Virus record (IMG/VR): IMGVR_UViG_3300037424_001256
Coordinates: 24,033-88,032 of that record
DNA: 64,000 nt
Source: a virus
Lineage: Duplodnaviria; Caudoviricetes
Reading direction: 5' to 3' (one strand)
Shown: positions 50,247 through 52,532 of the stretch, piece after piece
How positions within the stretch are numbered: the stretch's first letter is position 1
How the letters are laid out: each line of letters opens with the position of its first letter
Translations under genes and position numbers: made by a program
The notes under the pieces: generated by a model
Seen by the model: the letters and a program-made list of their open reading frames with translations, nothing else
Databases searched by the model: none
Told to the model about the DNA's origin: nothing

Positions 50247-50456
50247 ATGATCAATCTTATGTTAGCTAGAAAAAATAGCAAATTAACCCAGAAGCAATTA
50301 GCTAAAAAAGTAGGGATTAGCAATTTAAAGATAAGTAGATACGAACGAGGAGAAACAGTACCGAAAGCTGATATTCTTAAGCGAATAGCAATGGAGCTGA
50401 ACGTAACAATGGAATACTTACTTGAAGATGTAGGAAAGGAAAGATTATCTTCATGA
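50247..50456 (+). CDS. XRE-family HTH regulator
   Basis: LTQKQLAKKVGIS...ISRYERG..VP. Confidence 0.85.
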   Translation: MINLMLARKNSKLTQKQLAKKVGISNLKISRYERGETVPKADILKRIAMELNVTMEYLLEDVGKERLSS

Positions 50457-51223
50457 CAAAAATAATCTCTATTGCGAATCAAAAAGGCGGGGTAGCAAAG
50501 ACTACCACTAGCGTAAACCTTGGAGCTTGTCTTGCAATGGCAGGTTACAAGACGCTATTGATCGATTCTGACCCACAAGCTAATGCGACACAATCAATTA
50601 TAGGCGGGGCTATATTCGACCACGGTACTGCACATTTATTCGAGAACCCAAAATCGGTACTGTCAAGCGTAGTAAACGTAACGCCAATAGAGAACTTATA
50701 TCTAGTGCCCTCTGACCTTTCCCTTAGTCAAGTAGAATGGCAATTACTTAAAAATTATAAGTCATCTCATACGATGATATTGAGGGACAAGATAAGATCT
50801 TTAAACAAGGACAACTTTGATTATGTAGTTATAGATTGTCCACCAAGCTTAGGATTATTCAGTTTAAATGCGCTTATGTGTGCTGATAGGGTACTCATCC
50901 CTATAGGGCTAGATATTTTCTCATTGGTGGGGTTGAAATATCTCCTAAATACTACTAATGAAATCAGGATGAATGGAAATAAAACGTTAAAGATATTGGG
51001 CATTGTGAGAACCATGTGGGACTTGCGCTTAAGCTTAGCTAAAGAATTAACCGAAAGCCTAGAGAGTGATTATCCAGATAAATTACTGAAATCAATCATC
51101 CGTAACACGGTCAGGATTCGGGAGAGCATAATTTCTCAGATGCCTATCGTTATTTCAGAACCATCTTCGCCAGCATCGGAGCAGTATAAGGAATTAATGA
51201 AAGAGGTGCTGGATAGATGGTGA
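50453..51223 (+). CDS. parA: ParA/Soj-family ATPase
   Basis: NQKGGVAKTT, IDSDPQAN, IDCPPSLG. Confidence 0.95.
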   Translation: MTKIISIANQKGGVAKTTTSVNLGACLAMAGYKTLLIDSDPQANATQSIIGGAIFDHGTAHLFENPKSVLSSVVNVTPIENLYLVPSDLSLSQVEWQLLKNYKSSHTMILRDKIRSLNKDNFDYVVIDCPPSLGLFSLNALMCADRVLIPIGLDIFSLVGLKYLLNTTNEIRMNGNKTLKILGIVRTMWDLRLSLAKELTESLESDYPDKLLKSIIRNTVRIRESIISQMPIVISEPSSPASEQYKELMKEVLDRW

Positions 51224-51489
51224 GAAAGTCCGGCAAAGCTAATTTAGCCACAATGTTGGAAGGCATCGGAGATCACAAAATCAAACCAGAGACACAGAAT
51301 GACACTTCTAAGCTTATCAAGGTTAAGCGGTGTTACGCTATCACGGATCTACAACTCGAAAAGCTTATGTTGCTTAAGGCTAAGGTATTCAGGGGAATGG
51401 ATCTTAGTGATATCGTAGGTATGGCATTAGATGATTTTTACGAACTAAAAGGAGGAAAAAAAGAATGGCTAGACCAAGAGCAGGAGTAA
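51217..51489 (+). CDS. Small ParG/RHH-like partition protein
   Basis: Overlaps the parA stop; C-terminal beta-alpha-alpha pattern 'KRCYAIT..QLEKL...DLSDIVGMALDDF'. Confidence 0.55.
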   Translation: MVRKSGKANLATMLEGIGDHKIKPETQNDTSKLIKVKRCYAITDLQLEKLMLLKAKVFRGMDLSDIVGMALDDFYELKGGKKEWLDQEQE

Positions 51490-52532
51490 AAGAATACAAA
51501 GAGGACATGCCTAAAAGCTTGGCAGAACAAATCGAAATCCTAGAAGCTGAAAATTCCCGGCTAAAAAGAGAGCTGGAGAAAATAAGCGATATCGATGCTA
51601 AGGAAGATATAAAACCCTTAGTAAAGTTGACTAAGGACTTAAGGACCGCAAGTAGAACCTTGAACCCTTCGGAGGCGCGTTATTTAGTGGATAGGTACTA
51701 TCAGATCCAACAGTACCGTACAAGTGCTAAGAATCAGATCAGAGCAAGCGAGGGAGAGGAACCGAATGAAGTCATTGTCTGGTTCGCGGATAACTTTGAA
51801 GCTTTAGAAAAGGATATCAAGAAAGCATTAGATGCATATACGTCTAGTCATCCCGTAGGACAATGGTGTAAGAGTATCATCGGAATTGGCCCAACGTTCG
51901 CAGCAGGGTTATTAGCTCATATTGACGCAAAAAAAGCACCCACTGCTGGAGCAGTATGGAGCTATGCGGGATATAACCCTAGCGTAACATGGAACAAAGG
52001 TGAGAAGCGTCCATGGAATGCAGATTTAAAAAAACTGGGATATTTAATTGGGGAATCATTTACAAAAGTTCAAAATAATCCCAATGATATCTATGGCAAA
52101 CTTTATAAGCAACGTAAAATTCAAGAGATCGAGAAGAACATAAACGGAGATTTCGCAGAACAAGCGGTTGCTAAACTTGAAAAGTTCAAGATTGGGAAAG
52201 AAACCGATGCCTATAAATGGTATGCGGGGTGCATAACCTCAGAAGATGCTAAACTTATCCTACTTGGTGATAAAGTTGGCAAGCTTAAGGACCTAATCAA
52301 GGAACCGGGAAGTGGAACCCAGATGCTACCGCCAGCACATATTAACGAACGCTCAAAACGGTATGCTGTAAAGTTATTCCTAGCACATTATCATGAAGTT
52401 GCATTTGAGTACGAATTCGGGATTAAACCACCAAATCCATATGCGATCAGTATATTGGGACATGCCCATAAGCTAGAGGTGCCGAACTACGAGGTGTTTA
52501 AAACTGCCTTAGAGGATAACCCAGCGTTATAA
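51465..52532 (+). CDS. tasA: Nop-domain RNA-binding protein, TasA-like (TIGR-associated, no nuclease domain)
   Basis: Coiled coil, then IS110/Nop-like 'SIIGIGPTFAAGLLAHID...VWSYAGYNP...WNADLK...Y...K...H...R.KR..VKLFLAH'; no RuvC DEDD or HNH; followed directly by a 36-nt dual-repeat array. Confidence 0.8.
   Translation: MARPRAGVKEYKEDMPKSLAEQIEILEAENSRLKRELEKISDIDAKEDIKPLVKLTKDLRTASRTLNPSEARYLVDRYYQIQQYRTSAKNQIRASEGEEPNEVIVWFADNFEALEKDIKKALDAYTSSHPVGQWCKSIIGIGPTFAAGLLAHIDAKKAPTAGAVWSYAGYNPSVTWNKGEKRPWNADLKKLGYLIGESFTKVQNNPNDIYGKLYKQRKIQEIEKNINGDFAEQAVAKLEKFKIGKETDAYKWYAGCITSEDAKLILLGDKVGKLKDLIKEPGSGTQMLPPAHINERSKRYAVKLFLAHYHEVAFEYEFGIKPPNPYAISILGHAHKLEVPNYEVFKTALEDNPAL

Follow-up and report, generated by a model that had tools for sequence, protein, structure and literature searches.

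The 64,000-nt stretch of DNA analysed here (the window) makes up the final 64 kb of a tailed-phage genome, the 88,032-bp virus record IMGVR_UViG_3300037424_001256, which is rated complete. Towards its 3' end lies a gene, tasA, for a Tas protein devoid of a nuclease, followed directly by a dual-repeat TIGR array, and the two together form the last part of an operon that encodes ParA-type plasmid partition. TasA and its array are already known; the parA operon context is undescribed, but it is the arrangement of one lineage. On the balance of the evidence, this is probably an ordinary TasA-plus-array module that has been appended to a maintenance operon, would be expressed with it in the carrier state and would bind DNA outside the phage, partition itself being performed by ParA and a small protein of ribbon–helix–helix (RHH) type. 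The features of the locus are, in window coordinates:

49718..49747, + strand: sigma-70-like promoter 5' of the operon (TTGACG, 18 nt, TATACT; 10 of 12 positions match in a scan)
49781..50185, + strand: p134, a conserved protein of 134 aa and the operon's first gene (open reading frame without a Pfam match)
50247..50456, + strand: xre-type helix–turn–helix (HTH) regulator, kept in relatives (Pfam HTH_3, E 2.6e-15)
50453..51223, + strand: parA, a small ParA ATPase of type Ib build, 256 aa (Pfam, PHROG)
51217..51489, + strand: gene for the probable RHH centromere-binding partner of ParA, 90 aa (fold pattern and Atlas neighbours)
51465..52532, + strand: tasA, a nuclease-less Tas protein of 355 aa with a long N-terminal helix, a coiled coil and a Nop-like domain (PDB matches, AF2 model, Foldseek)
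52531..52708, + strand: tasA-proximal dual-repeat TIGR array, 4–5 units of 36 nt (sequence, motif statistics, unit parsing)
52888..52953, + strand: remnant TIGR unit(s) at the end of the proximal array (unit parsing)
52992..53010, + strand: terminator-like hairpin with a T run, the sole + strand site of this kind found in 49400–54700

The preliminary description of this DNA had xre, parA, the 90-aa gene and the 355-aa gene each overlapping the next on the + strand, and the open reading frames bear this out: xre and parA share 4 nt, parA and the 90-aa gene 7 nt, and the 90-aa gene and tasA 25 nt. The operon promoter is accompanied by a direct repeat, ACGA(C/T)A(A/T)TATTATC, present twice at 49702–49734, and the scan of 49400–54700 found no terminator-like site on the + strand between this promoter and the end of the array. 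Homologues of p134 occupy the same position in the related genomes G001–G004 and L220, and a promoter-like sequence, TTGACG-17/18-T(A/G)TA(A/C)ACT, precedes the p134 homologue in all five of the genomes compared (the present one and G001–G004). Additionally, tasA has its own Shine–Dalgarno site, AGGAGG, and both this ribosome-binding site and the start are kept in the relatives, whichever gene stands in front.

The partition genes themselves are readily placed. Matches to the Pfam families AAA_31 (E 1.9e-51), CbiA and ParA together span the whole of ParA, which falls in phrog_164, ParA-like partition protein (E 2.9e-67; PHROGs); it carries a deviant Walker A motif, KGGVAKTT, near its N-terminus and is without an N-terminal HTH. 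The 90-aa protein gave no sequence matches in Pfam, PHROGs or the PDB. It opens with a basic, flexible segment (MVRK...), behind which comes a strand–helix–helix pattern that is kept among its homologues, and its Atlas neighbours (by language model and structure) are DUF5388 (0.93), RHH_1, RHH_3 and CopG/BrnA, with TM values of 0.5–0.6 on what is a poor model. The earlier assignment of a type Ib ParA–RHH pair consequently stands for ParA, given its Walker A motif, its lack of an HTH and its Pfam matches; for its partner, the fold pattern together with the language-model and structure neighbours makes the RHH label likely, albeit without a Pfam match.

Type Ib partition is exemplified by ParF–ParG of TP228, delta–omega of pSM19035, and PrgP–PrgO and RepB–RepC of enterococcal RepA_N plasmids. 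Like these, the present operon combines a small Walker-type ParA lacking an N-terminal HTH with an overlapping downstream gene, whose product of ~90 aa has a flexible, basic N-terminus and a probable RHH-like core. It differs in that xre and p134 precede parA, in that cargo (tasA, the array and, in some relatives, a protein termed p247) follows the partner gene, and in that no repeat centromere was identified: the search for one returned just a single pair of 14-nt direct repeats, located at the promoter, and no iterated sites common to the five genomes. ParA and its small partner are a complete pair, for which TasA is not needed.

The 355-aa protein is TasA, a true nuclease-less Tas protein. 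In phmmer searches of the PDB it matches TasR (9mty, E 1.2e-11) and TasH (21kl, E 4.8e-7); Pfam returns only a weak match to Transposase_20, with neither an HNH nor a RuvC domain, and it is because the protein is Tas-like but without a nuclease domain that it is classed as TasA. In the AF2 model (pLDDT 81.8), residues 1–64 form a disordered tip and one long helix; when this model is submitted to Foldseek, 9mty and 9w02/9vzx/21kl (TasR, TasH) come first, at probability 1.0, followed by recombinases of the IS621 type (IS621 and ISCro4). Across 15 homologues, Tyr326 is nearly invariant and His333 invariant. The two align, in a low-scoring segment, with the Y...GH of TasH, and are candidates for the processing dyad that dual-repeat Tas proteins carry on a C-terminal loop. 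A close homologue, P0008, is 581 aa long and contains Hint/intein domains (PF07591, PF13403 and PF14890), such that it looks to be interrupted by an intein.

The array follows tasA directly, as had been described: its first, truncated edge repeat overlaps the tasA stop codon (52530–52532). A unit consists of a 10-nt edge repeat (GAGCGAGCCA), the 8-nt spacer A, a 10-nt loop repeat (GAGA(A/G)AACCA) and the 8-nt spacer B. In the window the edge motif was counted 15 times, where 1.3 occurrences would be expected, and it has its last 8 bases (GCGAGCCA) in common with the published edge of TaTasR (UGCGAGCCA). In this genome 87 tigRNA units were parsed, in six array regions that are all on the + strand; G001–G004 have 100–113 parsed units each. 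Several spacer pairs recur unchanged from genome to genome: GAGGAAAA/TTACAGGA, for one, is common to the genome under study (G000), G001 and G003; ten pairs are common with G002, and shared pairs lie at genome positions 174, 13989 and 14778 and at the matching positions in G001–G003. Such identity shows that guides are vertically inherited, with turnover. In a contig from an Eubacteriales metagenome-assembled genome (L195, 1760–2800), a TasA that is 51% identical is followed by a 1-kb array with near-identical repeats (GAGCGAGCCA / GATAGTAACA) and, since these repeats are almost the same, the repeat grammar reaches well past the ParA-linked clade.

How far the link between parA and tasA itself extends is a separate matter. 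It is present in six genomes, all from one clade of ~85-kb phages (the present genome, G001–G004 and L220). In G001–G004 (82–88 kb), the order is p134, xre, parA, the RHH gene, the gene for p247 (242–254 aa), tasA, and an array that begins from the tasA stop codon; in L220, whose TasA is 88% identical and which is the closest relative, the order is that of the window, without p247. The start of tasA lies within the preceding gene in most of these genomes, a 24-nt gap taking the place of the overlap in L220, and the order of the operon is kept in all six, which are otherwise rearranged. ParA was found within 8 kb of tasA at 4 of 80 TasA loci in IMG/VR (45–79% identical), and all four are members of the clade. 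A further 103 loci, from metagenome and genome contigs, yielded a single instance, L195, in which ParA is encoded 2.3 kb downstream of tasA, past the 1-kb array and three unrelated genes, as a unit of its own; no ParA was found on two other long contigs, the contexts of P0048 and P0057 from the protein collection.

In a tree of 160 proteins (FastTree), the ParA-linked TasA proteins constitute one branch with a support of 100, corresponding to one change, and the TasA of L195 sits in a different group of 12, the other members of which are without ParA. Moreover, in L219, an element more distantly related, xre, parA and the RHH gene are accompanied by two small genes and p247, and both tasA and arrays are missing. 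The single branch, the other loci without ParA and the par operon of L219 without tasA together lead us to conclude that the par operon and the TasA module are separable and were joined once. It is at its 3' end that this par operon takes up cargo. The preliminary description made conservation of the linkage in relatives a test of its inference; with the link present in six genomes of one clade, as a one-time event, and missing from ~180 other TasA loci, the outcome is mostly negative. A plasmid database contained no relative of TasA, and phage records gave only distant Tas or IS110-like matches; Table S1 of Faure et al. 2025 (PMC12045711) already contains members of the clade, among them the tasA of G003.

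Whether the guides are directed at the phage itself was approached through the target geometry fixed by the published tigRNA1 of TaTasR and its target, in which a single strand carries spacer A and, immediately after it, spacer B in reverse complement. The ~520 spacer pairs of the five genomes (the present one and G001–G004) were searched against all five, with arrays masked and re-paired spacers as controls, in both orders, with gaps of 0–4 nt and with a fixed GC gap. Not one perfect match was obtained, and those with one or two mismatches were as numerous as for the re-paired controls. Given this equality, the guides do not mark the par or ori regions of the phage or its siblings, nor do they have a centromere-like self-target; the idea that spacers match such regions of related phage-plasmids found no support above chance in this genome and its four siblings, and self- or sibling-targeting guides are rejected on the same counts. 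A scan of public sequences with one conserved guide gave 80 scattered matches, in groups of redundant contigs, which is about the number estimated to arise by chance for 16 nt.

The TIGR-Tas systems were defined by Faure et al. 2025 (PMC12045711), who noted tasA operons with a ParB-like gene, proposed that TasA blocks the transcription or replication of rival mobile elements, and found that TasR drives loss of a targeted plasmid; ParA is not mentioned in that paper or in its supplement. More recently, Xu et al. 2026 (bioRxiv 10.64898/2026.09.09.750476) found TasA to repress transcription in a guide-dependent manner, again with no mention of partition, and we found no literature that links TIGR-Tas to ParA. 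The blocking of competitors, put forward in the preliminary description as an undescribed role, is plausible, but it had already been proposed for TasA by Faure et al. 2025.

Three known systems invite comparison. The present module shares with the dual-repeat TIGR-TasA of Flavonifractor plautii (FpTasA; PMC12045711) a phage-borne, nuclease-less Tas protein with a coiled coil and a Nop-like domain, units of 36 nt, alternating edge and loop repeats that end in CCA, and an array that opens with a truncated edge repeat and stops before a terminator. Here the repeats are 10 nt and the spacers 8 nt, and there are 87–113 units per genome over several arrays, against the usual 5–15 per array in that paper; it also differs in the embedding of tasA in a parA operon and in the basic N-terminal extension of TasA. 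With the tasParB–tasA operons (Faure et al. 2025, fig. S14 and methods), the likeness is that tasA stands with a plasmid-segregation gene and that the dual repeats are of 10 nt; the neighbours here, however, are ParA and an RHH-like protein rather than a ParB-like one, and p247, the neighbour of tasA in the relatives, weakly resembles a thiol enzyme and not a ParB fold. Lastly, the plasmid-borne type IV and type V-M CRISPR-Cas systems are likewise nuclease-less, guide-RNA systems on extrachromosomal elements that are thought to bind rivals; the likeness is one of possible mode of action only, as the proteins and RNAs are unrelated and no adaptation genes are present here.

Taken together, we envisage that, in the ancestor of one phage clade, a type Ib partition operon would have gained tasA and an array at its 3' end, producing the order promoter, p134, xre, parA, RHH gene, tasA, array and terminator. 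TasA and the first array would be co-transcribed with the maintenance genes and hence be made during plasmid carriage; TasA would cut the array transcripts into 36-nt tigRNAs, perhaps by means of the candidate dyad Tyr326/His333. The resulting complex would bind DNA without cutting it, with spacer A matched by one strand and spacer B by the opposite one, and may block transcription or replication there, as has been measured for other TasA proteins. Its targets would be elsewhere than in the phage or its four siblings, with rival mobile elements or the host as the most likely places, and partition would be left to ParA and the RHH protein, with TasA as cargo of the operon and not a part of the segregation machinery.

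Several observations weigh against this view. The co-transcription is a prediction, and the scan detected weak promoter-like sites within tasA, at 52059–52120. No target was found in the genomes searched, so that we infer the action on rivals or the host. The TasA proteins of the clade have an N-terminal extension of ~45 aa that opens with a basic peptide, M(A/V)RK(S/K)KK, and the RHH partner starts similarly, with MVRK; partner proteins activate ParA-type ATPases via basic N-terminal peptides, and the extension of the clade TasA is of a similar kind. Furthermore, given the ParB-like neighbour of tasA already published, a second partition-type neighbour is perhaps not a coincidence.

Of the alternatives, we would give first place to one in which TasA and its ~90 guides serve the lysogen as a regulatory system, silencing host genes, or the phage's own through imperfect matches, with the place in the operon setting the timing; this we regard as unlikely. 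It agrees with the behaviour of TasA as a guide-dependent repressor, and some spacer pairs are kept between genomes whose TasA proteins are ~77–84% identical (by comparison of open reading frames), suggesting constraint on some guides. Nevertheless, self matches with two or fewer mismatches are not above controls, and the sharing of spacers may reflect nothing other than common descent.

It is more doubtful still that the gene order is without functional meaning, tasA and the arrays being driven by promoters of their own, independently of the par genes, for instance in lytic growth. The weak promoter-like sites inside tasA would suit such an arrangement, as would the scattering of other arrays over late-gene regions and the ability of the par operon to take on further cargo at its 3' end, p247 for example. 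Set against these are the start of tasA inside the preceding gene in most of the genomes (L220 with its gap aside), the lack of a + strand terminator-like site all the way from the operon promoter to the array end, and the retention of the order in six genomes that are otherwise rearranged.

A role for TasA as a working part of partition or incompatibility, which was the inference drawn in the preliminary description, appears to us very improbable. In this scheme, the basic N-terminal peptide would contact ParA, and the tigRNAs would pick out DNA sites on the element, the host nucleoid or a rival replicon, where positioning or exclusion driven by ParA would then take effect. In its favour, six genomes have tasA as the final cistron of their par operon, the clade-specific extension begins M(A/V)RK, as does the RHH partner, and it has been published both that other tasA operons contain a ParB-like gene and that TasR causes plasmid loss. 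Yet the link arose only once, and the par operon occurs without tasA; a gene for an unrelated enzyme separates the RHH gene from tasA in 4 of the 6 genomes; the pair of ParA and small partner is complete already; no spacer pair matches the genome or its siblings above the re-paired controls; and long N-terminal regions are frequent among TasA proteins in general. The more specific form of this proposal, namely that TasA is a second, RNA-programmable partner of ParA whose tigRNAs tether the complex to the host nucleoid or to rival replicon DNA, is the least credible of those considered, although, if true, it would make plasmid positioning, hitch-hiking or exclusion guide-directed.

Beyond the operon, the window contains further features that bear on its surroundings:

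3393..3721, + strand: separate TIGR array of ~10 units in the packaging/sugar-gene region
42007..42750, - strand: p247, a Cys-His-Asp protein with a transglutaminase/papain-like fold (AF2 pLDDT 85.5, weak structural matches)
53020..62750, + strand: genome-specific block of ~10 kb within the array, with Phd/MazE-like small genes, Uma2, RepA_N, a DUF3006 protein and other open reading frames
54574-55506, + strand: RepA_N initiator (PF06970, E 9.2e-28)
54971..55162, + strand: tandem repeats within the RepA_N gene (periods 55, 23 and 15), possibly an iteron-type origin
62750..64000, + strand: distal TIGR arrays, running on at the contig start and homologous, in the relatives, to the far portion of the tasA-proximal array

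The Rep initiator that had been remarked upon 2 kb downstream of tasA is indeed there, as the RepA_N gene. No homologues of the block from 53.0 to 62.7 kb, RepA_N included, are present in G001–G004, and the arrays past the block share spacer pairs with those directly after tasA in G001, G002 and G003; the block therefore sits inside an array that is continuous elsewhere. RepA_N as a partner of the par–tasA operon is rejected, as part of a 10-kb block that is unique to this genome. Arrays may serve as sites of insertion or recombination for plasmid modules.

In the window, p247 is encoded 9 kb away on the opposite strand, whereas it stands between the RHH gene and tasA in 4 of the 6 genomes (G001–G004). 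Its family has 12 members, in which Cys111, His161 and Asp172 are invariant, and its structural matches, although weak, are all to thiol-enzyme folds: LapG (Z 5.6), TglA and Ceg10. The gene evidently moves, being found in the par–tasA operon in four relatives, in that of L219 without tasA, and at a distant minus-strand site here. Two candidates for the published TasParB were considered and rejected. For p247, the 12-member family and a confident model led to thiol-enzyme folds only, with no ParB-like chain listed, itself a weak negative; for a protein of 238 aa, the gene of which overlaps the start of tasA at five further loci (L022 type), there was no Pfam match and no ParB lead in Atlas.

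The remainder of the genome is that of a tailed phage, with YqaJ/RecT, DnaD-like and DnaC-like replication proteins, terminase, a Mu-like portal and a nonulosonic-acid pathway. The reported absence of an integrase from the window extends to the 88-kb genome as a whole, which has no tyrosine integrase. The proposal of a phage-plasmid lifestyle is judged plausible, and the 88-kb phage is probably maintained as a plasmid. A small serine resolvase is encoded outside the window (genome 3237-3824, - strand), and G001–G004 have in its place a tyrosine recombinase of 180–220 aa (G001 81856-82359 and counterparts); near the array end, one small site-specific recombinase seems to have been exchanged for another, and such enzymes fit multimer resolution in a plasmid-like prophage, integration being a further possibility. 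At the contig end (window 63849-64000; genome 28-203), genome positions 28-127 are repeated directly (100 nt), and genome 144-203 then reappears as its reverse complement in the last 60 nt. The genome is thus probably circular or terminally redundant, with an assembly artefact at its end. Elsewhere, at 1421-1909 and 50 kb from tasA, is the only ParB_N protein of the genome (E 1.3e-8), and its gene is followed by one (1876-2145) whose product has an Acb2/Tad1-like hairpin domain (E 2e-22) and may be an anti-CBASS/Thoeris sponge. The window also encodes homing endonucleases of the LAGLIDADG and HNH_3 types, at 37404-38321 and 45097-45717, with homologues in only some of the relatives.

The partition link is the gene order of a single lineage and not a property of the family and, for that reason, it cannot alone support a mechanism of RNA-guided segregation. 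Nonetheless, tasA and its array are apparently transcribed with the plasmid-maintenance genes of the phage, which points to their use in carriage rather than in infection. As a compact operon found in nature, the locus would allow inheritance, incompatibility and silencing to be put to the test, and it bears on the natural role of nuclease-less TasA.

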